From Convolutriloba macropyga (Eukaryota), in the NCBI RefSeq assembly GCF_964194025.1, contig NC_134480.1:9300001-9364000 (forward strand): a stretch of 64,000 nucleotides of DNA, in the 5' to 3' direction. A model generated the notes under the pieces. That model saw nothing but the letters and a program-made list of their open reading frames with translations, had not been told where the DNA came from and did no database searches. Positions 8,301 to 64,000 of the stretch are shown here, piece by piece; the stretch's first letter is position 1, and every line of letters starts with the position of its first letter. The position numbers were made by a program, and so were the translations under genes.

Positions 8301-8308
8301 AAACTTAC

Positions 8309-33689: not shown

Positions 33690-34990
33690 CATCAAACTAT
33701 TATGATGCGAGGACGCTGAGATGGGCGCCCTCTGGATTACGCAGTAAATCTACAATAACAATTCGTTACCGGAACCCGGAACATCCGAGGTTACTGCAAA
33801 AACAGGAGACGAGATGCTGGAAACGTTATCGGAGAATAACTTCAAAATCTACTCTCTTCAGGAAACAAAGAGAGACAAAATCGAATGTGAAAAACGGATA
33901 TCGCCTAATTTTCTTCGATAAGGGCAATCAAGAATAACCTGAAACAGTCGAAGCGAAAACCGTCACTGGCAGGCAGGATTTGCATGCACACCGTTGAAAA
34001 AAGAGGGAAACGGGCTGTGAAAGATGGTGCGGAAGATCGAAAGACCATCTTCAAAACGGATATCAAGAAAAACCGCTCATCAACTGCTATGCACCACACA
34101 TGGGGATAACAAGAAAAAACGCCTATGAAGCAGAAATTCTACCGAGACCTAGATGCACTGTTAAAGTCACTCAAAGGTAAAGACATTATTATTCTAAGCG
34201 ACTTCAATGCAAACTAGCATGTGTAAGAGGAGAACCCGTGGGTTCGTCCGCGAGAGGAATATGAACGCTAACGGGGAAATGCTCTATGAAATCCAAGACA
34301 GGAACAAGTTTATCGCGGCTAACCCCATCTTCAAGCACAAGGCCAGCAACAAGGTTGAACTGGATCACGGACTTCTGGCAGTTAAGATGTACAGCAAACT
34401 AGACTGGGAAAGAGGCAAGACAAAAACCAAAAAAAGCAACAGAAGATCCATTGCTCATAGAGCTAAAAACCAAAAGAAGAAAAATCACCAAAAAGATGGG
34501 CCTAAAGAAGATCATCCAAGGGAATGAAAGAACAAAGAGACAGGAAATAGATTTAGGTAAAATTACTAATTACTTCGAGAACCACTTCACCGATCCGGAA
34601 GCAGAAGAGATAGCAAAGGAGCCCACAAGCTGTTTTAGACTGATAAATGAATCAGAAGTCAGAGAAGCTGTCAAGAAGCTCTCAAACAAAATGAACTCTG
34701 GACCGAACGAAGTGACCCCAGAAGACCTGAAAAACTCAGATACAAAAACTGTCACAAAAACACTGAATGAAAAGCTCAGAGAAAGACGAGAAGCTCACGA
34801 ACGGCTACATGTTTACGATTCTGAAACCAGGCAAAGACGGAACCAAACCGGATAGTTGCAGACCAGTGAATCTACTATCCACCTACAGGAAGCTCATATC
34901 ACTCATAACTCTGAAAAGAATCAGCCCGAAATCGAAGCATCGATGCCACCCTCTCAATATGCCTACCGAAATGGGAAATCAACAGACGAC
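33690..34990 (+). mobile_element. Decayed LINE fragment (AP endonuclease plus RT N-terminus; RTE-like), 3'-truncated
   Basis: QETR, IILSDFNA, NANGEML...ANPIFKHK, EVREAVKKL...SGPNEVTPE, ILKPGKD...RPVNLLSTYRKLIS, PSQYAYRNGKSTDD; frameshifted and ending before the catalytic DD motif. Confidence 0.8.
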
Positions 34991-35035
34991 AGTGTGTTAG
35001 TGTTAGTGTCAGTGTGTTAGTGTTAGTGTGTTAAT
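34991..35035. repeat. Imperfect (GTGTTA/GTTA)n simple repeat at the LINE/polB junction
   Basis: AGTGTGTTAGTGTTAGTGTCAGTGTGTTAGTGTTAGTGTGTT. Confidence 0.8.
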
Positions 35036-35079
35036 GTTTCCTAATCCAATAAGTTTGTATCCTTTAGCCCTTAAGTGAA

Positions 35080-36040
35080 AACGCAGATGGACTCAAAGTC
35101 AAACATAGTCAAGTTTTTGATCAAGTGCTGCTCATCGTTGTAATAAATTCAAAATCTGTCAAGTTTGTAAACAAGGTCTCTCTCGTGGTATAAACAATCT
35201 TTGGGTTAATTTTTTGTAGTCTAATTTTGCAAGACTTCATATTACGGTTGAAATGACCTGCATGCTCAATAAATTTCGCAGCAAGAACAGCGGAAGCTCT
35301 TTGAATAGCGTGTTGATATGGTTAGCATAGCAAACGTGGTTGTAGCGAAGTAAGAAATGCTCTTCTCATACATTTCAGCAAATCTCTTCCCAATTTCTGA
35401 ATTATATTTTTTTCATTCTTCTATGCTGACATCATACTTTCATTCTTCTATGCTGACACAAAGAAAATATGTTTTTATCAAAAATACATTAGGTACAATT
35501 TGATCCATTGACAATCCTTTCAAGTTGATTGCGTCCTAATCAGACTCTTGGGGAAATTCACCGACCAAGTCTGCTGCATTGGTCTCCAACTCAGCTGATA
35601 CAAGTAAACAGTCACAGATCTGAGCAGGAAACTATAATCTTTGTAGATTTCTCCACGTCTATCTGACACGAAAATATTTACATTCTTGTGTTTAACAACT
35701 GTTCAGGAAAAACTCTATTATTACATCCCATTGTAAATTTACAGATGAGACCGAGTTTGCTTTCGAGCAGAGTAACCCTGAAGCGATTTTCCAAAGAACG
35801 TGATTTTCTAATGAGCATTAAATTATCGATATTGGTCTTTGTCCACATTTAGCAAGCAGAAAGCAAGAGCCAAATTCACTTCAAATACATCGTTCAGTTT
35901 CTGATTTATCGTATTGAGGTCGAGCTTGAACAATTTGAAGTCGAACCCTGAATGTCTCCCATTTTTCATTTTCATTTCGTTAAAGAAGGGCTTGCAAACA
36001 CCAAGCTCCCGATGTAGTTGATTGTTAACTTTTTCTAGAT
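35080..36040 (-). pseudogene. Decayed 5' portion of a Polinton/Maverick-adintovirus-type pPolB gene, up to the Exo I motif
   Basis: Manual translation across frameshifts: IYKDYSFLLRSVTVYL, LLRYNHVCYANHINTLFK, VYTTRETLF, YYNDEQHLIKNLTMFDFESICV (last motif at 35080-35118). Matches my recollection of this polymerase family. Confidence 0.7.
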
Positions 36041-39000
36041 CTTTGTAGAAAAGTTAGGACCTTCGGGACAAGATAAATTTCCATTGTTGCAAGAGTTTTT
36101 GTTTTCAGCCATATGGTTGGAGACAAAATTTTTTGCTTTTTTTGCAATTGATTGGGAGATTTCTAAAAAATGGAGGCATTGTTAGTTTTAGTGCACAATA
36201 AATTGGGTAAAAGTCAGGTCATTAGAGATGCAACTGGATCTGAAAACAACAGAAAAATGAATAAAGCTGATTTGTCATTTTGAGGAGTTTGGCTATGAGT
36301 CACCACTTCCATATATGGCAAGAACTTCATTTTTTTTCTTAAAAATAAGCGTCTTTTCGAACACTCTGCAAGACTGAAATTATTCGAACACTCTGCAAGA
36401 GATTCATAATTGTTACACTTTACTTGAAATTTTCCGTTTTTGCACACAGTTTTTCAATAAAAAATGCAAAAAACTAAAGCAATTATTTTCGGTTTCCGCA
36501 AACTTTCAGTTTTTACGTGGTCATTGTTAGACTTAGCTCAAAATTGTGTATCTCAAATGCCGATAAAACTTACTCTCTTAGATCAAATTTAGTTTTATTG
36601 AAATTAGAAATTAGCTAATATGTTTGCTTTTATAACAACTATACAGTGATCAAGAAAAAACTTCCATCTACTATTGAAGCTCAAAACTTTATGAAAAACC
36701 TAGTTTTGTTGTATAAGAACCAAAAGTGATTTTTATTCTCATTTTTTTACAACTTCCAGAACAATTTTACTTAAAACAACAGAATTGTCCGATTTAGTAA
36801 AATATTTGAATATGCTATCTTTTCTATCAAAAAAAACAAGTAAAAGGACTACAAAACAAATCAAATTTTTTTAATAGTCAGAACTACACATCAACCTGTA
36901 CAAAATGCCATTCATTTTTAATATTGTCACAAAATTTATGAAACAGTACAAAAATTTATCTCAGTTTTTTTCTCAGTGCATCTATCTCAGTGCTTATATT
37001 CAGATTACTGAAACAGTAAAACTTAACGTACGCTGTTTTTCATCTTTACGAAGACTACCACGCTGAAGGAGTAAAAGCATAATTTGGAAAACGACTCCCT
37101 AACTTTTATTGAATTCCCAGTTTTTTATAGTAATATTGGCCTTTCTCTGAAATAGTTTCTTCATTGGTTATTCTATAAGTATGTTATTTCCCTTTCATAT
37201 AATAACGTCTTTTTTTCATTAAAGATTTCATTAATTGGTTAAAGTTTTTGATATAAAGATGTAAAAAAAAGTCGCATTGCATCATTTGCTCTCTTCCCTC
37301 AACATAACATTACCTGTGTACATAATCTTCAACGACATTTGTGTTGCATTCTTTCTCTCGTCTCATAACATCGAGAAATATATATTACAGTGCAGAATAA
37401 CAGTCTTCTCTGGGTCTAACAGTTAATCTTTGCAGATTTTTCCAGGACGATCTGATACGGAAAATTTACATTATTGCTTTTCGACAACTGTTCAGGAAGA
37501 ACTCTATCAATGCATCCCATTGTAGTTTTCTGGAAGAGGACACAACTTACATTTGTAATTAAGGCAAATGGTCATTTTATGTTTTCCGTCTCTTGTGCAC
37601 GCGTCTCTACAGGATCCATCATTTCAACTCTGTCTTGAAATGTGACCGAGTGCTCATTCGACCAGAGTAACCTTAAAAGTTTTTTAAAGAACGTGTTGTT
37701 CTCATGAGCTTAAAGCTATCGATATTTATCTTTGTCCACCTTTCGCTAAAATCAAGAGCTATATTCAATTTAGCGGCGCAGTTGAGCTTCTTAAATACTT
37801 CATTCAGTTTCTCATTTATCTCTCTGAGATCGAGCTTGAAGTTGCCAACTGAATGTTTTCCATTCCTCATTTCCGTATCACTGAAGAAGGGCTGCCCAGT
37901 ACTAAAATCCTGTTGTAATTGCTCGTTTTTTTGTCTAGCTCCACCGATTTTAGGCCTGTTTTGAGGTTTCATTTCAATTTGTCCTAACTTTTGTCGATGG
38001 TCCATGGTTTTCCTTTTATGCTGTTGCACAAAAAACACAGCAAATCCTCCAATCACACAGTACACATAGTACTAGGCTTCACATCTTTCGGGGATTGATT
38101 CTTGGCGTGACGGTAATTCGAGTCTTTTTTTCTTTTGTAGAAAAAATGGAACATGTGGGATAAGATAAAGTCCCCATTGACTCAAGAGTTTTTGTGTTGA
38201 GCCCTATGCATCCCGACAAACGTTTTTCTTGTAGCTTGTTCATTTAACTGGAAAATTTTGTTCAAGTGCAGGCATTGTTCGTTTTAGTGTGCAATAAATC
38301 AAATGAAATTCAGTTAATTTGTGACGAAATTGAATCTAAAAATAACAGAAAAAAATGATTTAAGCTGATTTGTCATTTTGAGGAGTTGGCCATGAGATAT
38401 CACTTCCATATATGACAAGTACACCATTTCAATTTTTTAAAAAAGCGTCCTTTTTGAATACTCTGCAAGACTGAAATTATGCAATCAGATTTCAACATTA
38501 CCTCTTGTAGCTTTTCCAGGGGATTTTTTTTTTAAATGTTTACAGACATCCCTTTGGGTCAAATTGTAACTTTACTTTTTCCTCACATTACTCACATTCA
38601 TATTTTTTAAAATTAACTGGCAATTTTCTGTTTTAGCACAGAGTTTTTCAACTAAAAACTTGCAATAAACTAATGCAATTCATTTCGGTCTCCGCAAGTT
38701 TTCAATAATTGCAAGGGTTTTCGTTAGACTTAGTTCACAATGGTGTATCTCAAATACCGATAAAATTAAGTGTCTTAGATCAAATTTCGTTTTATTGAAA
38801 TTAGAAATTGGCAAAAATTTTTCCTTTTATACCAACTATAAAGAGATCAAAAAAAAATTTCCGTCTATTATTCAACCTCAATATTTAATTTACAACCTAG
38901 TGTTGTTGTATAAGAATCAAAATTGATGTTTTCTCTTTTTTAAATTCTTGAACATATTCACTGAATACAACAGAATTAACCGATTCAGTAAAGTATTTGA

Positions 39001-42000
39001 AAATACAATTTGTTCTATCAAAAAACTCAAGTAAAATGATTACAAAACAAACATTTTTTTATTTATTGTCAGAAATACACATCAACATGTACAAAAAGCT
39101 CTTCATTTTTAGCTGTGTCACAGAATTTATAAAACTGTACAAAAAATCTATCTCAGTTCACTTATGTTCCGATTGTTGAACCAGTAACACTTAACTCATT
39201 GCAATAAAAAGCGCTGTTTTTTCCTCATTACGAAGTTTTCAATTCTGATAGCGTAAGAGTACAATTTGAAAATAGCCTTCCTAACATTTACTGAATTCCC
39301 AGTTTTCCATAATAACCTTGGTTTTTGTATGAAATACTTCCTTCTTTGGTTATTTTAAAAGCATGTTATTTCCCATTCATATAATAACATTATTTTTCAC
39401 ATTAATTTCAATAATTGGCTAGAGTTTAGTATCTATAGATATAAAAACAGTAACGCAGCTTCATTTGCTCTCTTCTCTAAATACAACATCACCTCTGTAC
39501 ATAATCTTCAACTAAATTTCGGTTAATTTCTTCCGTTCATCTCATCAAATCGAGAAATGTATTTTACAGTGCAGAATAACAGTCTTCTTTGGACAAAAAG
39601 AAAATCATTTTTGATTTCTCCAGGACCATCTGATAAGGGAAATATACATTCTTGTGTTTCAACAACTGATCAGGAAGAACTCTATCAATACAATCCATTG
39701 TAATAATCTGGAGGAGAGCACAAGCTACGTTTGTAATCGTGGCAAATGGCCATTTTGTGGTTTCCCACTTTTTTGCACGCGTCTCTACCAGATCCATTTT
39801 TTCAACTCTATCTTGAAATGTGAGCAGTCCCCTTTCGAGCAGAGTAGAATAACCTTAAGTGTTTATTTAAGGAATCTGTTGTTTTCATGAGCACAAAATT
39901 TTTGATACTCATCATTGTCCACATTTTGGTGAATCCAAGAGCTAAAATCTTTTTGGGGGCGCAGTTGAGATTGTCAAATATTTCGTTAAGTTTCTCAATT
40001 AACTCATTGAGTTTAGGCTTGGACAACTTGAGGTTGAACATTGAATGCCTCCCATTATCCATATCCGTATCGTTAAAGAGGGGCTGGCAAGCACTGAGCT
40101 CGTGATGTAATTGCTCGTTGTTTTTCTGTAATTTCTCCAATTCTAGGACTTCATTGAGACTTTCAGTCAATCTGTCCTAACTTTTGTCAATATTTCATCT
40201 TTTCTCTTCTTTTGCTGTTGAAGAGAAAAAACACGGGAAATCCTGCAAGCACAAAGTGTACATATTACTAGGCTTAACGTTTATGGGAGATTGATACTTG
40301 GTGAGATGATAATTCAAGTTTTCTTTCTTCTTTGTAGAAAAAGTAGGACATTTGGGACAAGATAAAGTTCCATTGTTAGTAGAGTTTTTGTGTCAAGTCA
40401 TATGCTTAATGACAAACGTTTTTTGCATCATATTCAATTCTTTGAGAGATTTTGTATCAACTGCAGTCATTGTTTATTTTAGTGCACAAAAAAATGAGTA
40501 AAATTCAGGTAAATTGCGGAGCAACTGAATTAGAAAATACAGAGAAAAATATAAAAACTGATTTGTCAATTTGAGGAACTTGGCCATGAGTCATCACTTC
40601 CAAATATGGCAAGTGCGTCAATTTTTTTAAAAAAAACAAGCGTCATTTTCGAACAATCTGCAAGACTAAAATTGTGCAATCAGATTTCAACATTAGCTTG
40701 TCCAAATAATTTCATTTTAAATGTTAGCAGTCAACTCCTGGCCTCCAATTCGAACGCTACGTTTCCCTCTCATTAATCTCTTATTCATATTTGTTACACT
40801 TTACTTGAAGTTTTCCGTATCGGCACAGAGTATTTCAACAAGAAGAGAAAAACAATATAAAGTGATTCACTTCAGTATCCGCTAACTTTCAGTTTTTATA
40901 AGGTTATGAATAGACCTAAATCACACTCGTTCATTTCAATTACCTATAAAATTTTTTGTCATAGATCCAATTTGGTTTTTGTCAAATTAGAAATCAGCAA
41001 ATAAATGTGTTTTCTTAACAACTATAGAAAGATCATGAAAAAACTCCAATCTATTTGTGAAGACAAATTTTAACAACACTTATTGTACAGCCTAGTGTTG
41101 TTGTATAAGAACCAAAATTGATACTTATTCTGGTTTTTTTTACAAATTCTTGAACATTTTTATTTAAAACAACAGAACTGTCCGATATAGTGAAGTATTT
41201 GAATATGCAAAATTTTCTATCAAAAAATTTCAAGTAAAGAGAATACAAAACAAACCAATTATTTAAATCGTCAGAGTTACACATTAACACGTACAAATTG
41301 CACTTCATTTTTAATATTGTCACAGAAATTATGAAACAGTACAAAAATCTATCTCAGTTTTTTCTCAGTGCATCTACCTCAGAGCTTATGTTCAGATTAC
41401 TGAACCAGCAACACTTAATGTGCGCTGTTTTTCATCTTTTTGAAGACTAGAATGCTGAAGGAGTAAAAGCACAATTTGGAAAACGACTCCCTAACTATTA
41501 CTAAATTCCCAGTTTTTCATAGTAAAATTGTCTTTTGTATGAAATAGTTTCTTCGTTGGTTAATCTACAAGTATGTTATTTCCCTTTCATATAATAACGT
41601 CCTTTTTTCATTAAAGATTGCATCAAATGGCTAGAGTTTATGATATAAAGATGTAAGAAATCTTGCATTGCATCATTTGCTCTCTTCCAAGACTACAAAA
41701 CAATATTGTGGTTTCCCACTCTTATGCACGCGTCTCTAGCAGATCCATGGTTTCAACTCTATCTTGAAATGTGAGCAGTCTCCTTTCGAGCAGATTAACC
41801 TTAAGAGTTTATTTAGGGAATCTGTTGTTTTCATGAGCATAAAAATATTGATATTCATCTTTGTCCATATTTTGCTGAATCCAATTGCTAAAATTTTTTT
41901 GGGGGCGCAGTTGAGATTGTCAAAAACATCGGTATATTTCTCATTTAACTCATTGTGATCAGGTTTGGACAACTTGAAGTTGAACATTGAATGCCTGTCA

Positions 42001-45000
42001 TTCTCCATTTCCGTATCGTTAAAGAAGTGCTGGCAAACACTAAACTCGTGTTGTAATTGCTTGTTGTTTTTCTGTTTCTTCTTTAATTCTAGGACTTCAT
42101 TGAGATTTTCAATCAACCTGTCCCAATTTTTGTCAATATTCCATGCTTTCTGTAATGCTGTTGAAGTGTATAAAAACACGGAGAATCCTGCGAGCACAGA
42201 GTTAACATATTACTAGTTTTAACGTTTTTGGGGGACAGATGCTTCGTGAGATGATGATTCAAGTTTTTTTCTTCTTTGTAGAAAAAACAGACATTTTGGG
42301 AAAAAATAAACAACAAAACTGTTCAATTTAGTGAAATATTTTAATATGCAAACCTTCTTTTTATCAAAAACTCAAAAAAAGAAGACTACAAAACAAACCA
42401 ATTTTTTCATTTTTTGTCAGAGTTACACATCAACACGTACAAGATGCTCTTTGTTTTTGATTGTGTCAAAGAATTTAAGAAACAGTACATACATCTATCT
42501 CAGTGCATATCTCAGTGAACCAGTAACTCTTAATTCATTGCTATAATGTCCGCTGTTTTTCGTTATTACGAAGACTAAAAATGCTGGGGGATTAAGAAAA
42601 CAATTTTGGAAATTACTTCCCAATATTTATTGAATTCCCAGTTTTGTATAGTTACCTTGGTTTTTGTATGAAATATTTCTTTCTTTGTTAATTTTACAAG
42701 TATGTTATTTCCGATTCAAATAATACCGTCATTTTTCAAGATTTGCTAGAGTTTAGTATACATAGATGTAAAAAAGTCACACAGCAAAAATTGCTCTCTT
42801 CCCTCAATGCAACATGAGCTCAACGTACAAAATCCTTAACGGCCTACGGCCTTTGTGATAAAATATTTCTCTCATTTCAACACGTCGAAAAATGTATTTT
42901 ACCCGGAAGAGTAACAGTCTTCTCTGGAGGAAAAATAGCCTTTGTAGATTTCTCCAGGACCATCCGATACTGGAATACAACATCCATGTATTTCAACAAC
43001 TGTTGGGGAAGAACTCTATTAATAAATCCCAGTGTAATATTCTTGAGGAGAGCACCAGTTACGTTTGTAATCGTGGCAAATAGCCATTTTGTGTTTTCTC
43101 TCTCTTGTGCACGCGTGTCTACCAGATCCATGATTTCAACTCTGTCTTGAAATGTGACCGCTCGCCATTTTGATCAGAGTAACCTTAAGAGTTTTTTTTA
43201 AAGAAGGTGTTGTTCTTATGAGCTTAAAACTATTGGTATTTATCTTTGTCCACATTTCGCTGAATCCAGGAGCATCAGGTAAAGTATTTGAATATGCAAA
43301 CTTTTCTATCTAAGAACACAAGTAAAAACACCATAAAACAAACCAATTTTTTTAATCGTCAGAATTACGCATCAACACGTACAAAATGCACTTCAGTTTT
43401 AATATTGTCACAGAATTTACGAAACAGTACAAAAATCTATCTCAGTTTTTTTCTCAGTGCATCTATCTCAGTGCTTATATTCAGATTACTGAACCAGTAA
43501 CACTTTATGTGCGCTGTTTTTCATCTTTACGGACACTACAATGCTGAAGGAGCAAAAGCACAATTTGGAAAACGACTCCCTAATTTTTATTGAATTCCCA
43601 GTTTTTTATAGTAATATTGGCTTTTCTAGGAAATAGTTTTTCCGTTGGTTAATCTACAAGTACATTATTTCCCTTTCATATAAAAACGTCTTCTCTCCAT
43701 CAAAGATTGCATTAACTGGCTAGAGTTTATGATTTAAAGATGTAAGAAATCTTGCATTGCATCATTTGCTCTCTTCCCTCAACATAACATCACCTCTGTA
43801 CATATTCTTCAACAACATTTGTAATGCATTCTTCCTCTCGTCTCATAACATCGAGAAATATATATTACAGTGCAGAATAACAGTCTTCTCTGGGTCTTAA
43901 AAATAATCTTTGTTGATTTTTCCAGGACCATCTGATAAGACAAATTTACCCTCTTGTCTTTCAACAAATGTTCAGGAAGAACTCCATCAATGCTTCCCAT
44001 TGTAGTTTAGTAGAAGAGGACGCAAGTTACGTTTGTAATTAAGACAAATAGCCATTTTAAGTTTTCCGTCTCTTGTGCACGCGTCTCTACCGGATCCATC
44101 ATTTCAACTCTGTCTTGAAATGTGACCGAGTGCTCATTCGGTCAGAGTAACCTTAAGAACAGCGAGTTGTTCTCATGAGCATAAAAATATTGATACTTAT
44201 TTTTTTCCACATTTCGCTGAAATCAAGAGCTAGGTTCAATTTGGCGGCGCAGTTGTGCTTCTTAAATACTTCGTTCAGTTTCTCATTTATCTCATTGAGA
44301 TCGAGCTTTGATAACCTGAAGTTGCCAACTAAATGTTTTCCAGTCCTCATTTCCGTATCATTAAAGAAGGGCTGACCAGCACAAAATCCTGTTGTAATTG
44401 CTCGTTGTTTTTGTCTAGCTCCACCAATTTTAGGCCTGTTTTGAGTTTTCTTTTCAATTTGTCCCAATTTTTGTCGATGTTCCATGCTTTCTCCTTTTAT
44501 GCTGTTGAAAAAAAAACGGAAAGTACTCCAATCACACAGTACACATAGTACTAGGCTCCAGATCTTTCGGAGATTGATTCTTGGTGTGACGATAATTCAA
44601 GTTTTTTTTACTTTGTAGAAAAATTAGGACATTTGGGACAAGATAAAGTTCCATTGTTTGCAAGAGTTTTTGTGTTGAGCACTATGCATCCCGACAAACA
44701 TTTTTCTTGTATTTTGTTCTTTTGACTGGGAAATTTGTATCAAGTGCAGGCATTGTTTGTTTTAGTACGCAAATAATCGAACAAAATTCAGGTAATTTGC
44801 GACGAAACTGAATCTGAAAAAAACAGACAAAATGATTAAAGCTGATATGTCATTTTGAGGAGCTTGGCCATTAGTTATTTGGCCAAAGCGTCATTTTTGA
44901 AAACTCTGCAAAACTGAAATTATGCAATAAGATTTCAACATTACCTCTTGTAGCTGTTCCAGATGATTTTCCTTTTAAATGTTTACAGACATCTTTTCGC

Positions 45001-48000
45001 GTCAAATTGGAACTTAACCTTTCCCTCATACTACTCTCATCCATTTTTTTAAAAATTAACTTGCAATTTTCCGTTTTAGCACAGAGTTTTTCAACAAAAA
45101 AAATTGCAACACGTCGAAAAATGTATTTTACCGGGAGCATTAACTGTCTTCTCTGGAGGAAAAGATAGTCTTTGTAGATTTCTCCAGGAACATCCGATAC
45201 CGGAAAGTTACATCCATGTATTTCAAAAACTGTTAGGGAAGAACTCTATTAATACATCTCAGTGTAAAATTCTTGAGGAGAGCACAAGTTTTGTTTGTAA
45301 CCGTCCCAAATGGCCATTTTGGTGTTTTCTCCCTCTTGTGCACGCATCTCTACCAGATCCATCATTTCAACTCTGTCTTGAAATGTGACCGAGAGCCCTT
45401 TTGATCAGAGTAACCTTTAATATTTTTTAAAGAACGTGTTGTTCTCATGAGCTTAAATTTATTGATATTCATCGTTGTCCACATTTCGCTGAAGCCAGGA
45501 GCATCAAGTAAATTATTTGAATATGCAAACTTTTCTATCAAAAAACACAAGTAACAAGACTACAAAATAAACCAATTTTTTAATCGTCAGAATTACACAA
45601 CAACACGTACAAAATGCTCTTCATTTCTAATATTGTCACAGAATTTAAGAAACAGTGCAAACATCTATCTCAGTTTTTTTCTCAGTGCATCAATCTCAGT
45701 GCTTATATTCAGATTACTGAGCCAGTAGCAATTAATGTGCACTGCTTTTCGTCTTTACAAAGACTAAAATGCTGAAAGAAAAAAGCACAATTTGGAAAAT
45801 GACTCCCTAACTTTTATCGAATTCCCAGTTTCTTATAGTAATATTGGCCTTTCTCTGAAATAGTTTCTTCGTTGGTTATTCTACAAGTATATTTTTTCCC
45901 TTTCATATAATAACGTCTTTTTTCCTTTAAAGAATGCATTAATTGGCTAGAGTTTGTGATATATAGATGTAAAGAAAGTCGCATTGCATCATTTGCTCTC
46001 AACATAACATCACCTCTGTACCTAATCTTCAACGACATTTGTGTTGCATTCTTCCTCTCGTCTGATAACAATGAGCAATATATATTACAGTGCAGAATAA
46101 CAGCCTTCTCTGGGTCTGAAAGATTGTCTTTGTAGATTTATCCAGGACCATCTGATGAGGAAAATTTACATTCTTGTGTTTCAACAACTGTTTAGGAAGA
46201 ACTCTATCAATGCATCCCATTGTAGTTTTCTGGAAGAGGACACAAGTTACGTTTGGAATTAAGACGAAGGGCCATTTTGTGGTTTCCGTCTCTTGTGCTC
46301 GTGTCTCTACCGGCTCCATCATTTCAACTCTGTCTTGAAATGTGACCGAGTGCTCATTCGATCAGAGTAACCTTAAAAATTTTTTAAAGAACGTGTTGTT
46401 GTCATGAGCGTAAAACTATCGATATTTATCTTTGTTCGCATTTCGCTGAATTCAAGAGCTAGGTTCGATTTGGCGGCGCTGTTGAGCTTCTTAAATACTT
46501 TGTTCAGTTTCTCATTTATCTCATTGAGATCGAGCTTGGACAACTTGAGGTTGCGATTTGAATATTTTCCATTCCTCATTAACGTAACACTAAAGAAGGG
46601 CTGGCCAACACTAAAATCCTTTTGTAATTGCTCATTGTTTTTGTTTAGCTCCACCAATTTTAGGCCTGTTTTGAGTTTTCCTTTAATATTTTCCTAACTT
46701 TTGTCGATGTTCCATGTTTTTCCTTTTATGCTGTTGAAGAAAAAAAACACAGAAAATCCTCCAATCACACAGTGCACATTGTACTAGGCTTCACATCTTT
46801 CGGGGACTGATTCTTGGCGTGACGATATTTCAAGTCTTTTTTTCCTTTGTAGAAAAATTAGTACATTTGGGACAAGATAAAGACCCATGGTCGCAAGAGT
46901 TTTTGTGTTGAGCCCTATGCATCCCGACAAACATTTGTCTTGTATTTTGTTCATTTGACTGGGAAAATTCCTTCATGTGCAGGCATTATTTGTTTTAGTG
47001 CGCAATAAATCGAAAAAAATTCAGGTAATTTGCGACGCAACTGAATCTGAAAATAACAGAAAAAACGATTAAAGCTGATATGTCATTTTGAGGAACTTGG
47101 CCATGAGTTATCTCTTCCATATATGGCAAGTACACCATTTCTATTTTTAATAAAGCGTCATTTTTGAATACTCTGCAAGACTGAAATTATGCAATCAGGT
47201 TTCAACATTACCTCTTGTAGCTTTTCCAGAAAATTTTCCTTTTAAATTTTTACAGACATCACTTCGCGTCAAATTGGAACTTTACTTTTCCCTCATATTA
47301 CTCTCATTCATATTTTTTAACAATTATTTGCAATTTTCCGTTTTAGCACAGAGTTTTTCAACAAAAAAATTGCAACACGTCGATAAATTTATTTTACCGG
47401 GAGGATTAGCAGTCTTCTTTGGAGGAAAAGATAGTCTTTGTAGACTTCTCCAGGACAATCCGATACCGGAAAATTACATCCATGTTTTTCAACAACTGTT
47501 AGGGAAAAACTCTATTAATAAATCCCAGTGTAATATTCTTGAGGAGAGCACCAGTTACGTTTGTAATCGTGGCAAATGGCCATTTTGTGTTTTCTCTTTC
47601 TTGTGCACGCGTCTCTACCAGTTCCATCATTTCAACTCTGTCTTGAAATGTGACCGAGTGCCCTTTTGATCAGAGTGAACTTAAGAGTTTTTTAAAGAAC
47701 GTGTTGTTCTCATGAGCTTAAAACTAGCGATATTCATCTTTGTCCACATTTCGCTGAATCCAGGAGCATCAAGTAAAATATTTGAATGTGCAAAGGTTTC
47801 TATCAAAAAACACAAGTAAAAAGACTACAAAACAAACCAATTTTTTAAACGTCAAAATTATACATCAACAAGTACAAAATGCTCCTCATTTTTATTTTTG
47901 TTACAGAAATTATGAAACAGTACAAACATCTATCTCAGTTTTTTCTCAGTGCATCTATCACAGTGCTTATATTCAGATTATTGAGCCAGTAACACTTAAT

Positions 48001-54000: not shown

Positions 54001-57000
54001 TGATTCATCACTTCCATATGTGTCATGTGCGCCATTTTTTTTTAGAAGCAAGCGTCATTTTCGAACAATCTGCAAGACACAAATTTTTCAATCAGATTTA
54101 AACATTAGCTCGTCCGAATAACTTCATTTTATATGTTTACAGCCCACTCTTGGCGTCCAATCTGAACGCTATGTTTCCCTCTCATTACTCTCTAAGTCTG
54201 ACTTGTTACACTTAGCAGAGAGTATTTTAACATGAAGAGAAAACAATATAAAGCAATTCACTTCAGTATCCACAAACTTTCCGTTATTGCAAGGTTTCGA
54301 ATAGACTTAGTTCACACATGTTCATCTCAAGTACCGAAAAAATTTTTTTCATAGATCTAATTTGGTTTTTACAAATTAGAAATAAGCAAATAAATGGATT
54401 CTCATAACAACTATAGAAAGATCATGAAAAAAATCTAATCTTTTTGTTCAGATCAAAACTTATTGTACAACCTAGTGTTGTTGTATAAGAACTAAAATTG
54501 ATATTGGTTTTTATTTTTTTACAATTTCTTGAAAAGTTTTACTTAAAACAACAGAACTGTCCCATTTAGTAAAAAAAATTGAATATGCAAATTTTTCTAT
54601 CAAAAACTCAAGTAAGAAGACTACAAAACAAACCATTTTTTTAATTTATTGTCAGAGTTACACATCAACATGTACAAAATGCTCTTCGTTTTTAATTCTG
54701 TCAAAAAATTTATGAAACAGTACGAAAATCTATCTCAGTGCATATCTCAGTGAACCAGTAACTCATAATTCATCGCTAAAATGTGTGCTGTTTTTTGTTA
54801 TTACGAAGACTAAAAGTGCTGGGGGAGTAAGAGTACAGTTTGGAAAATTACTTCCTAACATTTTTTGATTCCCAATTTTGTAAAGTAACCTTGGTTTTCG
54901 TATGAAATATTTCTTTCTTTGGTTATTTTTTAAATATGTTATTTGCTATTCATATAATACCATCATTTTTCTTTTAATTGCATTGATTTGCTAGAGTTTA
55001 GTATATATAGATGTAAAAAAAATCACACAGCAAAAAATGCTCTCTTCCCTCAATGCAACATCACCTCTGTACATAATCTTTAAGGGCCTACGGCCTTTGT
55101 AATAAAACCTTTCTCTCATCCCAACACGTCGAAAAAAGTATTTTACCGGGATGAATAACAGTCTTCTCTGGAGGAAAAAGTAGTCTTTGTAGATTTATCC
55201 AGGACCATCCGATACCGGAAAATTACATCCATATATTTCAACAACTGTTAGGGAAGAACTCTATTAATAAATCTCAGTGTAATATTCTTGAGGAGAGCAC
55301 AAGCTTTGTTTGTAACCGTCGCAAATGGCCATTTTTGAGTTTTCTCTCTCTTGTGCACGCGTCTCTACCAGATCCATCATTTCAACTCAGTCTTGAAATG
55401 TGACCGAGAGCCCTTTTGATCAGAGTAACCTTTAAATTTTTTTAAAGAACGTGTGGTTCTCATGAGCTTAAAACTATTGATATTCATCTTTTTCTGAATT
55501 TCGCTGAATCCAGGAGCAAAATTCACTTTGGCAGGGCAGTCCAAAGCTCAAAGCTCAAAGTTCAAAGCTCCTGAGATAATTGCTAGGTAAATTTGTCTAG
55601 CTCATCCAATTCTAGGTCTTCTTTAAGCTTTTCACTCATTGTGGCCCAACTTTTCTATGTTCCATGCTTTCTATTTTTATGCTATCAAAGAGAATGAAAA
55701 CACCGGAAATCCTCCAAACACACAGCACACATAGTACAGGCTGAACATCTTTCGGGGAATGATAGTTGGCGAGCTGATAATTCAAGTCTTCTTTCTTTTT
55801 GTAGAAAAATTAGGACATTTGAGACAAGATATAACCCTATTATCGCAAGAGTTTTTCTATCAAATTGTCCAAACTTTTCTTGATGATCCATGCCTTTGCA
55901 GATGAAGAGAATAAAAACACGCAAAATCGTCCAAGCACAAAGTACACATAGTACCAGGCTTCACATTTTTCGTAGAAGGAGGCTTGAGGAAACGACAATT
56001 CGAGTTTTCTTTCTTTTTTGTAGAAACTTTGGGACATTTGGGTTAAGATAAAGTCCCATTGCCGCAAGAGTGTTTGTGTTGAGCCATATGCTTCATGCAA
56101 ACTTTTTCTTTGCGCCCTGTTTGTTTCACTGCGATATTTCTATCAAGTTCAGTCATTGTTTATTTTAGTGGACATGAAGTTGAGTAAAATTCAGGTAAAT
56201 TGCGGAGTAACTGAATCTGAAAACAACAGAAACAAAGATTAAAAAAGATTTGTCTTTTTGAGGAACTTGGCCCTGAGTCATTACTTGCATATATGGCAAT
56301 GACGTCATTTTTTATTTTAGGAAACAAGCGTCATGATCGAACGCTCTGCAGAACAGAAACTATGCAATCAGATTACATCATTATTTCACGTAGCTCTTCG
56401 GATTTCATTTCCTTTTATATGTTCAGAGTCATCCTTTGGCGTAAAATTGGAAATTTACGTTTCTTTCGGTTTTTCTCTCAATCATAATTTTTTTTACGTT
56501 TTACGTGAAAATTTCCGTTCCAGCACAGAGGATGTCAACAAGAAAAAAACAACAATCTGAGGCCATTACCGTATCGTTAAAGTTAGGCTTCCAAGCACCA
56601 AGCTCCTGATGTAATTGATTTTTGATTTTGTCTAGTTCCTCCGATTCTAGGACTTCTTTGAGATTTTCACTTAATTTGTCCCAGCTTTTGTCGATGTTCC
56701 ATGCTTTCTCCTCATATGCTGTTGAAGAAATTGGAAACACGGGAAATTTTCCAAGCAAACAGTACAGATAGTAAAAGGCTTAATATCGTTCGAGGAATGA
56801 CTCTAGGCAAAATGACAATTCAAGTCTTCTTTCTTCTTTGTAGAAAAGTTAGGACATTTGAGACAAGAGAAAGTTCAAGTTGCATTGTTGCTAGAGTTTT
56901 TATGTCCAGCCATATGCTTCTTGAAAAACCTTATTTGCTTAGTGTTCATCTCACTGATTTATTTCTATCAAGTGCAGGCACTGTTTGTTTTAGTGCAGAA

Positions 57001-59131
57001 AAAGTTGAGTAAAAATCAGATAATTTGCTGAGCAACTGATTCAGAAAATAACAGAAAAAAATTAAAGCAAGCTGATTAGTCATTTTGAGAAACATGGCCA
57101 TGAGTCATTACTTGCGTATACGGCAAGGACGTCATTTTAAATTTTTGAAACAAGCTTAATGATCGAACACTATGCATGACTGGAATTACGCAATCAGATT
57201 TCATCATTATTTCACGTGGTTTTTCCTAATTGTTTTATTTTTAAATGAATGTTCAGAGCCATAAGCTTGCGTAAAATTGGAACTTAATGTTTCCTAGGGT
57301 TTTCCAATTATTCCTATTTGTTGGACTTTCCGTTCCAACACAGAGGAGTTCAACGAGAAAAATACAACAATCTAAAGCAATTGAGTTCAGTCTCCGCAGA
57401 CTTTATGTTTTTCTAGTGTTTTCAATTGAATTAGTGAACACTTGTGTATCTCAAATGCATATAAAGTTTACTGACTAAGGTTCTATTTAAAAATTCAAGT
57501 TTATAGCAAAAAATTTGCATTTATATCAATTAAAGAGAGACCGAGAAAATATTCCCATCTATTATTGAAGAATAATTTTTCATTGTACAACCTAATGTCG
57601 TTTTATTAGAACCGAAAATGATGTTGATTCTTTTTTACAATTTCCGGGACACTTTTATTCTAAACAATAGAATCTTTAGATTTAGTAAAGTATTTAAATA
57701 AGCAATTTTTTTAATCAAAAAATACAAGTATGATGACTACATAACAAAACAGTTTTTTGATTTACCGTCAAAATTACACATCAACGCTTACAAAAGGGCT
57801 CCTCGTATTTAATTATGTCCTAAAGTTTTTGTAACAGTAGAAAAATCTATCTCAGTGCCCTTATATTCCGATTATTCAAACAGTAACAATTACTTCGTCG
57901 CTATACGGTGCGCTGTTTTTTCATTAATATAAAGATTACAATGGTGGGGGAGTAACAATACAATTTGGAAAACAACTTACTAACATTTTTTGATTTTCCA
58001 ATTTTATACATTAACGTTGATTTTTATATGAAATAGTTTTTTCTTTGGTTATTTTACAAGAACGTTATTTCCTTTCTTATAATAATGTCAATGTTTCCAC
58101 CAAAGACTGCTTTAATTGTATATAGTTTAGTATATATAAAGATGTAAAAAAGTCACACAGCATCAATTGATCTCTTCTCTGAATGCAGCATCACTTTTGT
58201 ACATAATTTTCAACGGCCTTTCTGAATAAATATTTCTCTCAATTCAACAAATCGAAAAATGTATTTCGCAGGGCAGAAAAACAGTCCTCTGGAAGAAAGG
58301 AGGAAAAGATAATCACTGTAGATCTCTCCAGGACTATCTGATGCGGGAAACCTACATTCCTGTGTTTCAACAACTGATCAGGAAGAGCTCTGTCAGTACA
58401 TTCCATTGTAATAATCTGGAAGAGAGCACAAGCTACGTTTGTAATCGGGAAAACGGCCATTTTGTGTTTTCCCAATGTTGTGCACGCGTCTCTACCAGAT
58501 CAATTTTCTCAACTCTATCTTGAAATGTGAGCGGCCTTTTTTCGAGCAGAGTAAACTTAAGAGTTTATTTAAGGAATCTGTTGTTGTCATGAGCACAAAA
58601 ATATTGATATTCTTCTTTGTCCACATTTTGCTGAATCCAAGGGCTAAAATCTTTTTGTTGGCGCAGTTGAGCTTGTCAAATATTTCGGTAACTTTCTCAT
58701 TTAATTAATTAGGATCAAATTTGGACAATTGTAATTGAACACTGAATGCCTCCACTTCTCCATTTCCGTATCGTTAAAGAAGAGCTGGCAAGCACTAAGC
58801 TCGTGATGTAATTGCTTGTTGTTTTTATGTTTTTCTCCAATTCCAGGACTTCGTTTAGATTTTCAATCAATCTGTTCCAATTTTTGTCGATATTCCATGC
58901 TTTCTCTTATGCTGTTGAAGAGAACACAAACACGCAAATCCTGCAAGCACAGAGTAAACATATTACTAGGCTTAACGTTTTTGGGGGTCACTCTTCAGTA
59001 TTTAAATTTCAGTTTTGTTTAGTATTAATCGTTTTTGCATGAAAGCTTTCTTTCTTTGGTTAATTTACAATTTTGTCATTTCCTTATTACATAATAACCT
59101 TGTTTTTCCGCTAAAGTTAGCTCTAATTGGC

Positions 59132-59137
<6 letters not shown>

Positions 59138-59185
<48 letters not shown>
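59138..59185. repeat. (TA)n microsatellite inside an array unit
   Basis: Directly visible. Confidence 0.95.
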
Positions 59186-59187
<2 letters not shown>

Positions 59188-62100
59188 TCTACAAAAGTCA
59201 CACAGCAACATTTCCTCTTTTCCCACAATACAACTTCCCTGATGTACATAATCTTGAACGAACTTTTTGTTGAATTCTCCCTCTCATCTCATCACATCGA
59301 GAAGTGTATTTCAGAGTGCACAATAACAGTCTTCTCTGGAGGAGAAGATGATCTTTGTAGATTGCTCCCGGTCCATCTGATCAGTAGAACTTCAAACAAT
59401 TCTTGGGTTTCAATAACTGTTCAGGAAAAAACTTTTTAACTATAACCCGTTGTAATGTTCTGGAAGGGAGCACAACCTAATTTTGTATTTGAAGCAAGTG
59501 GCAAGTCACCAATTTGAGTTTACCTTCTGTTGTGGACGCTTCTCTACGAGATTCATCTTACGCATCTTCATCTTCAGCATACGCTTTCAAGCAGAGTAAC
59601 TTGAAAATTTTTTTCCAAAGAACGGGTTGTTCTCATGAGCATAAAATTATCGATATTTTTTTGTCCACATTTCGCTGAATCCATGAGCCAAACTCTATTT
59701 AGTGGCGCTGCTGAGCTTCTGGAATACCTCATTTAGTTTCTCATTTATCTCAAAGAGATCGAACTTGGACAATTTGAAGTTGAACACTCGATGTCTCCTA
59801 TTCTCTTTTACTGTATCCCTAAAGAAGGGCTTGCAAGCACCAAGCTCCTGATGTAATTGATTTTTGATTTTGTCTAGCTCCTCCGATTCTAGGACTTCTT
59901 TGAGATTTTCACTCAATGTGTCCCAACTTTTGTCGATGTTCCGTGCCTTCTCCTCATATGCTGTTGAAGAAATTGGAAACACGGGAAATTTTCCAAGCAA
60001 ATAGTACAGATTGTACTGGGCTTAACATGTTTCGTGGTATAATGCTTGGCAAAATGACAATTCAAGTCTTCTTTCTTCTCTGTAGAAATGTTCGGACATT
60101 TGAGACAAGAGAAAGTTGAGTTTCCATTGTTGCTAGAATTTTTGTGTCAAGGCATACAAATATGCTTCATGACACACACTTTTTGCATCATGTTCCTTTC
60201 ACTGAAAGATTTCTGTAAACTTCAGGCATTATTTGTTTTAGTGCACAAAAAGTTGGGTAAAATTCAGGTAAATTGCGGAGCAACTGATTCTGAAAATAAC
60301 AAAAAAACGATTAAAGCTGATTTCTCATTTTGAGGAACTTGGCCATGAGTCAATACTTGCATATATGGCAATGACGTCATTTTTAAATTTAGAAACAATC
60401 GTCATGATCAAACTCTCTGCAAAACGGGAATTATGCAATCAGATTACATCAATACTTCACGTAGCTCTTCGAAATTCTTTTCATTTTAAATGTTCAGAGT
60501 CATCCTATGGCGTGAAATTGGAAATTTACGTTTCCTTCGGTTTTTCTCTCAATCATAATTTTTTTTCATTTTACGTGAAATTTTCCGTTCCAGCACTGAA
60601 GATGTCAACACGAAAAATACAACAATCTGAGGCAATTACCGTATCTTTAAAGAAGGGCTTGCAAGCACCAAGATACCGATGTAGTTGATTTTTGATTTTG
60701 TCTAGCTCCTCCGATTCTAGGACTTCTTTGACATTTTCACTCAATGCGTAGCCACTTTTGTCGATGTTCCATGCTTTCTTCTCATATGCTGCTGAAGAGA
60801 TTGGCCACACGGGAAATCTTCCAAGCAAACTGTACAGATACTGCTGGGTTTAACATCTTTCGGGGAATAATGCTTGTCAAAACGACAATTCAAGTCTTTT
60901 TTCTTCTTTGTAGAAAATTTAGGACATTTGAGACAAGAGAAAGATCAGGTTCTATTGTTGCGAGAGTTTTTGTGTCAAGACACACAAATTTGCTTTATGA
61001 CGCGCACTTTTTGCATCATGTTATTTTTACTGAGAGATTTCTATCCAGTGCAGGCATTGTTTGTTTTTGTGCACAAAAAGTTGAGTGAAATTCAGGTAAT
61101 TTGCGGAGCAACTGATTCCGAAAATAACAAAAAAGATTAAAGCAAGCTGATTTGTCATTTTGAGAAACTTGGCCATGAGTTATTACTTGCATATATGGCA
61201 AGGACGTCACTTCCAATTTTAGAAACAAGCGTCATGATCGAACACTCTGCAAGACTGGAATTGTGCAATAAGATTTCATCATTATTTCACATCGCTCTTC
61301 CTAATTATGTTGATTTTAAAAGTTCAGAGCCGTCTTCCGGCGTAAAATTGGAAATTTACCTTTGCTTCGGTATTCTTATCATTCATATTTGTTGAAATTT
61401 ACTTGAAATTTTCTGTTCCATTACAAAGATTTCAAAGAGAAAAATTTAACAATCTAAAGCAATTCAGTTCGGTCTCCACAAACTTTAGGTTTTTCCAGTG
61501 TTTTCAATAGAATTAGTTTACACTTGTGTATCTCAAATAAAGATAAAAATTACTGTTTTAGATTTTATTTGTTTTTGTTGAAATTAAAAAGAAATAAAGA
61601 GCAAAAAAATGTTTTTTTATTTAGACTATGTATAGACGGAGAAAAAATTCCCATCTATTTTTGAAGATCAAAATCTATTGTACAACCTATTGTTGTTGTA
61701 TAAGAAAAGAAACTGATATGTGTTTTTTTTACAGTTTTTCGAACGTTTTTATTTAACATAACAGAATTGTCCGATTTAGTAAATTATTTGATAATGCCAA
61801 TTTTTCTATCAAAAAACTCAAGTAAGAAGACTACAAAACCAACCATTTTTTTAATTGTCGTCAGAGTTACACATCAACACGTGCAAAATGCTTTTTGTTT
61901 TTAATTGTGTCACAGAATATATGAAACAGTACAAAATTCTATCTCATTGCATGATTCAGTGAACCGGTAACTCTTAATTCATCGCTATATTGTGCGCTGT
62001 TTTTCGTTATCACGAAGACTAAAAATGCTGGGGGAGTAAGAGTAGATTTTGGAAAATTACTTCCTAACATTTCTTGAAATCTCAGTTTTGCATAGTAACA

Positions 62101-63288
62101 TTGGTTTTTGTATGAAATAATTCTTTCTTTTCTTTACAAGTATATATCCCCTTCATGTAATACCGTCAATTTTCACTTAATTGCATTGATTTGCTAGAGT
62201 TTAGTATATATAGATGTGCAAAAAAGTAACACTGCAAAATTTGCTCTCCTCCCTCAATGCAATATTACCTCTGTACATGATCTTCATTGGCCTACGGCTC
62301 TTGTGATAAAATCTTTCTCTCATTTCAACACATCGAGAAATGTTTTTTACAGGGCAGATTAACAGTCTTCTCTGAAGGCAAAGATAGTCATTGTAGATTT
62401 CTCCAGGGCCATCTGATACGAGAAAATTAAACCCTTGTGTTTCAACAAATGTCAAGGACGAACTCTATTGATAAATCCTAGTGTAAAATTAGCGCGCTGT
62501 TCTTTTCATTATTACGTAGACCACAAGGCTGGAAGAGTGAGAGCTGGATTTGGAATACGATTATGTAGCATTTATATATCAGACTTTAGTTCCACTATTG
62601 GAACTTTTTCTGAGATCGACTTGAGATTGATCAAGATTCAGAGAAATTGTCAAAACTTGATTTTTCGATGAATTACACAACTCATTCCCTCCGAGTTATC
62701 AATGCTCGGATGTTTATTAGGCTTGTTGGAAAAAAAGTACAAACATTTATCTTTTTTGGGTCATTATTCAGTATTGAATTCCCAGTTTTGTATAGTACTA
62801 AAAATTTTTGTAAGAAATGTTTCCTTCTTTGGTTAATTTACAAGTATGTCATTTCCCTTTTACATCCTAACCTCATTTTTCCGCTAATTTTTGCTCTAAT
62901 TGGCTAAAGTTTTGTATATATAGACGTAGAGAAATCACACAACAACATTTGCTCTCTTCACTCAATACAACATCACCGCTGTACATAATCTTCACAGCAA
63001 GATTTAACAAGATTCGGAGAAATTATCAAAGCTTGATTTTTCGATGAACTACGCAACTCGTTCCATCTGAGTTATCAATGCTCGGATGTTTATTAGGCTT
63101 GTTGGAAAACTCGTACAAAAATTTATCTTTTTTGGTTCAATATTCAGAATTGAATTCCCAGTTTTGTATAGTATTAATCGTTTTTGTATGAAAGCTTTCC
63201 TTCTTTGGTTAATTTAAAAGTTTGTCATTTCCCTTTTACATACCAATCTCACTTTTCCGCTAAAATTTGCTCTAAATCGCTAATATTT

Positions 63289-63290
<2 letters not shown>

Positions 63291-63374
<84 letters not shown>
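63291..63374. repeat. (TA)n microsatellite inside an array unit
   Basis: Directly visible; same position in the unit as the 59138 run. Confidence 0.95.
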
Positions 63375-64000
63375 GACCTACAAAATTAAACAGTAACATT
63401 TGCTCTCTTCCCTCAATACAAAATTACTGCTGTACATATTCTTCAAAGACCTTTGTGTTGAATTCTGCCTGTCATCTCATTACATCGAGAAGTGTATTTC
63501 AGAGTGCAGAATAACAGTCTTCTCTGGAGGAGAAGATAATTTTTTAGATTGCTCCAGGACCATCTGATCAGGAGAACTTTCAATTTTTGGGTTTCCACAA
63601 CTGTTCAAGAAAATACTCTATAAGTATAACCCGTTGTAATATTCTGGAAGAATTCTTTTCAGTTTAATTTTGTATTTGAGGCAAGTTGCCAATTTGAGTT
63701 TGCCTTCTCTTGAGGACGCTTCTCTAAAAGATTCATCTTTTCAACTCTGTTTTGAAGTAAAACCGCATCCGCTTTCGAGCAGAGTAACCTTAAGTGTTTT
63801 TTCCAAAGGACGTGTTGTTCTCATGAGCCTAAAACTATCGATATTTATCTTTGTCCACATTTGGCTGAATCCATGAGACAAATTTACTTCAGAGGCGCAG
63901 TTGAGATTCTCAAACACTTCGTTCAATTTTTTCATTCTTCTCATGGAGATCTTGCTTTGCCAGCTTGAAGTTGAACACTGAATGTCTCCCATTCTCCATT

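Follow-up and report, generated by a model that had tools for sequence, protein, structure and literature searches.

The question raised by this locus is what a repeat field of at least 29 kb, lying close to the 5′ end of an axonemal dynein gene in Convolutriloba macropyga, was made from, how it was made, and whether it has kept any role. All coordinates are positions in the window, i.e. the whole stretch of 64,000 nt that was analysed (NC_134480.1, 9,300,001–9,364,000, assembly GCF_964194025.1). In self-blastn the repeats start at ≈35.6 kb and run on to the end of the window; the whole array (35,053–64,000, minus strand), corresponding to ≈13 unit-lengths and 16 core copies, is open at the right end of the window, with its far end lying beyond it. 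With a single real copy taken as yardstick, matches covered 27.5 of the 29.0 kb between 35,000 and 64,000, with a copy depth of 8–16 along the unit that reached 16 at the core. All 43 tblastn matches of a natural homolog (P0010) fell on the minus strand, and a second homolog (P0023) gave 35 matches at E < 1e-3 in the array versus none in any of ten shuffled arrays. Inverted HSPs accounted for 24 of the 520 internal to the array, every one of them at two (AT)n microsatellites. The 16 same-orientation core copies counted in a preliminary description of this DNA are thus borne out, and the tandem amplification of a viral or transposon fragment, also proposed there, is supported.

Sequence comparison confirmed, as the source of the units, the 5′ end of a gene for a zinc-finger, protein-primed family-B polymerase (pPolB) of ≈1,445 aa and of Polinton type. 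The best protein matches showed 54–75% identity, with E-values down to 1.6e-24 (18 of 190 candidates), and tblastn with P0010 placed the array fragments in the motif order of that homolog, in agreement with the pPolB N-terminal order previously given for them; most of the motifs named on the minus strand were retrieved, with the exception of the YHAK pattern, which has no match in the array. Exo I/II/III-like and Pol A/B/C motifs were present in all three long homologs examined, and the Exo I motif was also found in the last array copy. A Pfam DNA_pol_B_2 domain was detected above the cut-off in P0028 (39.6 vs 25.8 bits), the one homolog to pass among 13 long ones scanned, while the top Atlas match was an organellar/viral PolB cluster (0.92), 36% of whose members carry DNA_pol_B_2. 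The homologs fall in clusters of 306, 115 and 65 members, sizes suggesting a multicopy family, and P0022, from the cluster of 306, shares 99% identity with P0010 over their common part. A match to a cellular gene or to another class of transposable element was looked for and neither appeared, and an origin from the N-terminus of a zinc-finger-bearing pPolB, as originally suggested, is supported by homolog matches, motifs, Pfam and clusters.

Pfam analysis of the read-through frames of one unit gave sub-threshold C2H2 matches and nothing else. PDB sequence searches with P0015 and P0023 retrieved weak zinc-finger and Vsr matches and no polymerase, NCBIfam gave no polymerase match (0 of 5), and no match was obtained in plasmid, phage and GTDB genome searches. 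A representative-protein search returned 107 unnamed, mainly short proteins, with no gain in annotation, and an Atlas search with residues 95–400 of P0023 returned unnamed clusters alone; the single-sequence AlphaFold model of P0012 (pLDDT 39) was too poor for a structure search. P0023 shows a weak Vsr-like insert at residues 950–1017 (PDB E ≈0.08), and related weak Pfam nuclease matches occur in P0022 and P0031. Cys ≈288 and His ≈380 of the homologs resemble what we take to be the OTU dyad, and besides the zinc fingers the unit would span a putative terminal-protein domain as well as the first helix of the vOTU. According to the accessible text of PMC11071308, Polinton/Maverick pPolBs have a TP-vOTU-EXO-PALM organisation; our homologs, whose domains were assigned by motif, share a long N-terminal extension before the exonuclease but carry N-terminal C2H2 fingers, zinc and Vsr having no mention in that text. 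P0023, which may be a pPolB1 or a pPolB2, has its weak Vsr-like insert in common with the VSR-bearing pPolB2 reported, in the part of 10.1101/2023.08.22.554363 available, from marine nematode and mollusc Polintons; the region of the insert lies outside the array. Three motifs searched in the PMC10748475 supplement gave no match.

As for the element that carried this gene, the absence of an intact one from the locus, already noted previously, was confirmed. No array match to 15 long homologs extends past residue ≈475, so that the polymerase core is missing. The longest ORF within the array is 171 aa, and Pfam recognised no family in any of 18 frames when the flank, the last copy and two upstream blocks were translated in six frames; the ≈1.3 kb of upstream DNA may thus be viral or host. 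Within the window the locus showed neither integrase nor capsid nor terminal repeats, nor did these appear in the context-free sequences of the homologs, and inverted pairs between 35 and 41 kb were short and chance-like, none standing out as a terminal inverted repeat. The label Polinton-like follows from polymerase type and domain order, which point to what was most likely a virus-like mobile element, Polinton or adintovirus. The adintovirus traits given in the accessible text of PMC11071296 are a PolB bearing an OTU-like domain at its N-terminus, a recognisable hexon and an rve integrase with chromodomain; the likeness of our source gene to them is the motif-level OTU resemblance.

The unit, ≈2.19 kb, joins ≈1.3 kb of upstream DNA to the first ≈295 codons of pPolB, and the core copies, spaced 0.95–4.2 kb apart, form four subfamilies (alpha, beta, gamma and delta) with no pair above 92% identity. 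All segments are on the minus strand. The array begins with polymerase sequence corresponding to homolog residues ≈295–470 (35,053–35,618; 35% identity, E 6e-24, to P0015 residues 291–466), which ends just past the recognisable Exo I motif and is unique in the window. This continuation had been overlooked in the earlier reading. It is joined without interruption to the last copy (35,619–36,463), in which upstream DNA, start-codon region, zinc fingers and core are present with internal deletions. Two complete uninterrupted units starting at the yardstick start are found in the array: the 2,194-bp alpha unit used as yardstick (36,465–38,658), comprising ≈380 bp of upstream DNA, pPolB codons 1–≈295 (ATG at 38,275) and ≈930 bp that belong, as upstream DNA, to the following copy, and a beta unit (38,661–40,839) with 75% identity to its neighbour. 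Three partial segments with rearranged junctions, recognised by yardstick comparison, follow (40,858–43,273), and then a secondary repeat of ≈2.27 kb (43,279–49,645), in which alpha copies (yardstick 1–1863) take turns with ≈395-bp delta core fragments at 86–88% identity between periods. Yardstick and block identities resolve the next segment (49,641–55,856) as a mosaic in which partial units of the alpha, beta and delta subfamilies are combined. The gamma region (55,849–62,490) contains an older duplication that spans 2.6 kb at 77.5% identity with an offset of ≈4.06 kb, one truncation junction occurring twice, at 56,564 and 60,635, and the array reaches the window edge through degenerate segments, an (AT)n microsatellite (≈63,290–63,375) and part of a core copy that the edge truncates (62,491–64,000).

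Such a structure shares with satellites the long head-to-tail arrangement of kb-scale units, extending in a single orientation over at least 29 kb, but lacks their regular period and homogenised copies: core spacings range from 953 to 4,188 bp, with 2 of 15 within 2.1–2.2 kb (positions being approximate), and block identities are 67–92%, with medians of 75–80%. The regular ≈2.2-kb period previously described is therefore not retained, and of the term macrosatellite the head-to-tail kb-unit array stands while regularity was overstated, this being an old mosaic without ongoing homogenisation. The locus is a fossil transposon-derived tandem array on an unusual substrate. Repeat arrays are frequently mis-assembled, and an assembly artefact could be invoked on that general ground; we regard it as extremely unlikely, because false duplication would yield near-identical copies, whereas identity over at least 300 bp peaks at 91.9% and the exact match of greatest length, shared by two alpha copies, measures ≈92 bp. 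This exact match may be a conversion tract and carries no signal as a conserved block.

The ≈570 bp of extra polymerase sequence at 35,053–35,618 is absent from all other copies. Only the last copy continues into the gene, up to Exo I, and it is therefore taken as the remnant of the progenitor, which points to amplification in place. Successive rounds are visible as subfamilies, both in starred clades of the two trees, built from 13 of the 16 core copies (the last copy and short fragments left out), and in identity blocks. Tandem duplication is locally common, since the window contains two further tandem arrays, one of 532 bp and one of 84 bp.

According to the earlier description, every copy has stops and frameshifts of its own; many lesions are instead common across copies. 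At each of three sites most anchorable copies agree in their out-of-frame class (8 of 10, 9 of 11 and 13 of 14), and a stop at homolog residue 194 occurs in 12 of 16. Because the stop and the three frame breaks recur in most copies, the template was already a pseudogene, although the break at ≈183 may postdate the first duplication, as 2 of 11 copies, the last copy among them, are in frame there. Subfamily-limited stops also exist, such as that at residue 75, which among 14 copies occurs in precisely the five that are alpha.

After amplification the array appears, from its pattern of substitutions, to have decayed without detectable constraint. Median dN/dS was 0.71, versus 0.70 in neutral simulation (119 non-independent pairs); coding and non-coding blocks are about equally diverged (median identity 77–80% and 75–78%); and the minimum, maximum and spread of divergence in 60-bp windows all lay within the permutation null, with no conserved sub-block. 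Differences were distributed by codon position as 34/29/37%, and the small third-over-second excess may reflect alignment bias or brief early constraint. Neutrality of sequence is compatible with a function independent of exact sequence. A raised CpG loss was considered as a sign of targeted silencing (CpG to TpG/CpA 22% vs GpC 12% in the array) and rejected, an unrelated intronic tandem giving 18/62 vs 12/102.

These data also bear on whether the copies arrived already multiplied, as a single-step insertion of a concatemer that protein-primed replication had made from the end of a defective viral genome, or as repeated separate insertions at one site. Head-to-tail copies of a segment beginning upstream of pPolB would fit, but the shared inactivating lesions are older than the amplification, the nested subfamilies indicate several rounds well separated in time, dN/dS is neutral, unlike that of separately evolving active elements, and no terminal inverted repeat stands out between 35 and 41 kb; this origin is largely refuted and we hold it to be very improbable.

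On the neighbouring side lies host DNAH1 (axonemal dynein heavy chain 1), represented by its 5′ portion (456–32,760). It shares the minus strand with the pPolB fragments, is no part of the array, and was recognised from its identity to echinoderm DNAH1 (64%; 62–65% for echinoderm and mollusc proteins) and from 13 exon matches. Its ATG is likely at 32,760, 2.29 kb from the array end, in line with the ≈2.3 kb first estimated. The sole Rfam match was a tRNA at 12,487. Between gene and array lies, on the plus strand and thus opposite to the pPolB copies, a decayed element (33,700–35,000) that we take from its motifs to be LINE-type, probably a 5′ part cut off at the array edge, with a weak match to RNA-directed DNA polymerase (E 0.15) and none in Pfam. 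Duplications of 14–20 bp at the joint between array and retroelement (34,990–35,038) could be a repair scar.

This setting would allow the upstream regions of the viral gene to act on DNAH1 as multiplied promoter or enhancer sites, or as a chromatin element, each unit offering ≈1.3 kb of DNA upstream of the pPolB start codon, on the DNAH1 strand, directed towards that gene and 2.3 kb from its ATG. The upstream blocks are however conserved no better than the rest and the ≈1.3-kb retroelement fragment separates the array from DNAH1, and there is very little chance, in our view, of such a role.

The same setting would suit a small-RNA defence locus, in which plus-strand transcription, diverging from a germline-active DNAH1 promoter or starting from the LINE fragment, runs antisense to pPolB and yields piRNA-like guides, the array serving now, or having served once, as an amplified memory directed at a Polinton family of which many copies persist in the host lineage. 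The geometry fits, all fragments being on the minus strand just past the DNAH1 5′ end; the related family appears multicopy, as seen for the P0022 cluster; and piRNAs from transposon-derived repeats have a precedent, to judge from the title of a published paper. Uniform orientation gives no support, however, because it is automatic under tandem duplication, there is no conserved sub-region, and at 20–25% divergence only 10–3% of 25-mers would pair with ≤2 mismatches. Between the copies and P0010, a member of the closest family found, the median difference at second codon positions is 19%, which sets a minimum for the divergence of the DNA. In unistrand piRNA clusters, fragments of diverse transposons lie predominantly antisense to a single transcript; here one element is repeated, and the LINE-like fragment is on the strand opposite to pPolB. 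Sequence had been said to be unable to distinguish neutral satellite from defence locus, yet neutral divergence, a dead template, a distance of at least ≈19% from the closest family and automatic orientation all bear on the choice, and we consider the defence reading unlikely, with some small probability left to it.

The reading that we instead favour, with good confidence, is a fossil tandem array: the 5′ end of a pPolB pseudogene was amplified in place, and the copies have since decayed. A mobile element carrying a zinc-finger Polinton-type pPolB, the gene itself being recognisable, would have sat upstream of DNAH1. Its pPolB was already a pseudogene, with breaks near homolog residues ≈103 and ≈280, the stop near ≈194 and probably the break near ≈183, when head-to-tail duplication of the ≈2.19-kb segment (upstream DNA and codons 1–≈295) set in; the original end, longer than the rest, stayed behind as last copy. 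Unequal exchange and slippage may then have produced the rounds now seen at ≈23%, ≈15–20% and ≈8–13% divergence, together with deletions, mosaic units and the secondary 2.27-kb repeat. Turnover then ceased and the copies decayed with constraint undetectable, and a deletion may have removed the remainder of the gene, fusing the array end to the cut-off LINE fragment. The array encodes nothing and most likely behaves as silenced repeat DNA.

Transposon-derived satellites are described, in the accessible text of PMC9659126, as arising by tandem amplification of partial elements via end-joining, non-allelic recombination and unequal crossover. Our locus is similar in that part of a mobile element was tandemly amplified, and differs in that its unit has ≈295 polymerase codons, the longer progenitor end is still attached and homogenisation has ended; neither Polinton nor Maverick is mentioned in that text. 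As far as the available text of PMC8268682 reports, the oyster satellite CgiSat52 has a 1,656-bp monomer with Repbase similarity to DNA/Polinton, present as 17 and 6 monomers on one chromosome in two assemblies, and partially similar monomers are suggested there to come possibly from a tandemised element segment plus nearby sequence. CgiSat52 resembles our array in its kb-scale monomer, few copies and Polinton similarity, but similarity is described as fragmentary for non-Helitron elements, and the text available does not name the part of the Polinton concerned. The idea is hence not new in kind, a Polinton-similar satellite being known from oyster, and the locus illustrates, in unusual form, a process already known; no pPolB-derived array was described in the literature searched, which covers few subscription journals, and nothing relevant came from the text available of PMC9248874, PMC8097293, PMC7859515, PMC13130569, PMC9026859 and PMC9911081. 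The locus would gain in importance only with evidence of small RNAs or of an influence on DNAH1. The locus records the birth and arrest of a satellite, with its source gene, breakpoint, progenitor end, order of inactivation before amplification and rounds of duplication; a Polinton-type polymerase coding region is able to seed a kb-unit array, and arrays of this kind can inflate Polinton copy counts in annotation.

One in-frame fragment (48,644–48,979) of the array (35,053–64,000, minus strand) retrieved 18 unnamed proteins with 53–75% identity (190 candidates), and a search with one of these as query (5,896 candidates) led to 15 long relatives. All three long relatives examined (1,266–1,447 aa) carry Exo I, II and III-like motifs together with Pol A, B and C motifs, and Pfam placed C2H2 fingers at the N-terminus of the homologs. 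The Pfam cut-off for DNA_pol_B_2 was passed by P0028 alone, the other 12 relatives scanned falling below it, and no polymerase match was found for the homologs in PDB sequence, NCBIfam, plasmid or phage searches; the nearest Atlas cluster of the homolog P0013 was organellar/viral PolB. Another homolog, P0023, gave 35 matches to the array at E<1e-3 and none in 10/10 shuffled arrays. It also contains a weak Vsr-like insert, of a type known, according to passages of 10.1101/2023.08.22.554363, in some marine Polinton DNA polymerases that are protein-primed and belong to family B (pPolBs). Homolog cluster sizes of 306, 115 and 65 fit a multicopy mobile family. We conclude from these comparisons that the source of the array was a zinc-finger pPolB of Polinton type, in agreement with the preliminary description; the intact element could be a Polinton or an adintovirus. 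The homologs P0022–P0031 form a multicopy family of ~1,445-aa pPolBs that have C2H2 fingers at the N-terminus as well as a Vsr-like insert; Pfam's pPolB model mostly misses this family, which may be under-annotated. Two distant relatives, P0032 and P0035, bear a C-terminal NADAR-like domain.

Self-comparison of the window delimited a repeat field from ~35.6 kb to the window end. One real copy (36,465–38,658; 2,194 bp), taken as yardstick, aligned in 32 segments on a single strand and accounted for 27.5 of the 29.0 kb beyond position 35,000. Copy depth varied between 8 and 16 along the unit and stood at 16 in the core, the motif block of which 16 copies had already been counted. The macrosatellite previously proposed holds as regards its length (at least 29 kb) and single orientation, but it failed the test of homogeneity: core-to-core spacing (approximate positions) varies between 953 and 4,188 bp, making the array irregular, only two complete units begin at the yardstick's first base, the remaining copies being deleted or mosaic, and a secondary repeat of ~2.27 kb occurs at 43.3–49.6 kb. 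The 520 HSPs include 24 inverted ones, each located at an (AT)n tract. Two related copies contain (AT)n microsatellites (~59,130–59,195 and ~63,290–63,375) that have expanded at matching places in the unit. Identity between copies over at least 300 bp peaks at 91.9% and the longest exact repeat is ~92 bp, hence both recent homogenisation and an assembly artefact, to which we give hardly any credence, are disfavoured. The ~92 bp are identical at ~47,922 and ~50,979 in two copies otherwise ~88% alike, a possible gene-conversion tract.

In each unit the start codon has ~1.3 kb of DNA upstream of it, in which no protein or RNA family was found, and codons 1 to ~295 follow. A Cys near residue 288 and a His near residue 380 of the homologs resemble an OTU dyad, by which the unit would hold the zinc fingers, a putative terminal-protein domain and the first helix of a vOTU domain. 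The copy nearest DNAH1 (35,053–36,463) matches no other copy below 35,619, where it extends the gene as far as an Exo I motif that can still be recognised (E 6e-24, 35% identity to P0015 residues 291–466), as expected from in-place duplication of the upstream DNA and 5' gene part, the original keeping its longer end. Matches to long homologs indicated no gene sequence past residue ~475 in the array.

Different stops and frameshifts had been described in each copy, a picture that must be revised since lesions are widely common to the copies. Among copies that could be anchored, with residues counted from the second Met of the homolog P0010, a shared out-of-frame class was observed near residue 103 in 8/10, near residue 183 in 9/11 and near residue 280 in 13/14; the copy nearest DNAH1 has the last of these and lacks the break near 183, which may be slightly younger. 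Copies departing from common lesions may reflect later indels or anchoring errors. A stop at residue 194 occurs in 12/16 copies, and some stops track the four subfamilies resolved by trees and identity matrices (~80–92% identity within, 70–82% between), that at residue 75 being confined to the five alpha copies. From the lesions common to most copies and the nested subfamilies it follows that the pPolB gene was pseudogenised first and amplified afterwards, in multiple rounds.

Median dN/dS was 0.71 (IQR 0.59–0.84; 119 non-independent copy pairs), and neutral simulation gave 0.70 (95% range about 0.43–1.10). Differences by codon position were 34/29/37%, and the small third-over-second excess may reflect alignment bias or brief early constraint. 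Divergence of coding and non-coding blocks was about equal, and no 60-bp window departed from the permutation null. CpG changes are raised in the array, and equally so in the baseline, an unrelated ~532-bp tandem (about 3 copies; 6,447–8,303) adjoining an exon in a DNAH1 intron. The array is most probably inert, silenced repeat DNA. A small-RNA defence fed by transcripts entering the array on the plus strand, from DNAH1 or from the LINE, seems improbable: the geometry is possible, as such reading would run antisense to pPolB, a closely related multicopy pPolB family exists, and one nearer to the array than P0010 could be present in the host, but the uniform orientation of copies is uninformative, the array has no conserved sequence, and the median difference between array copies and P0010 at second codon positions is 19%. 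At 20–25% DNA divergence, only about 10–3% of 25-mers would pair with two or fewer mismatches. Regulatory and concatemer readings are, like the artefact, very remote.

The pPolB remnant terminates at short duplications (34,990–35,038), beyond which lies a probable LINE fragment (33,700–35,038, plus strand), a label suggested by its motifs and a weak database match. LINEs are usually truncated at the 5' side; here the 3' side is cut at the same point as the pPolB remnant, with the short duplications between, which suggests that a single deletion ended both. The DNAH1 start lies 2.29 kb beyond the array end, on the same strand as the pPolB fragments. Introns of DNAH1 also host an 84-bp-period satellite (41-bp sub-period; 15,939–17,881; about 23 copies, 93% match), a tRNA-Leu(AAG) on the plus strand, opposite to the gene (12,487–12,568), and decayed non-LTR retrotransposon-like frames (29,400–31,700, minus strand), presumably CRE-like by their motifs, for which no Pfam or PDB support was found.

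Tandem repeats from transposons are a known class, as passages of PMC9659126 describe, and similarity to Polinton is described in PMC8268682 for a satellite of oyster whose monomer measures 1,656 bp; a literature search resting on listings and passages found no published array of pPolB coding sequence. The array shares the mode of transposon-derived satellites, but its turnover has stopped: it is a transposon-derived satellite with arrested turnover, not an element.
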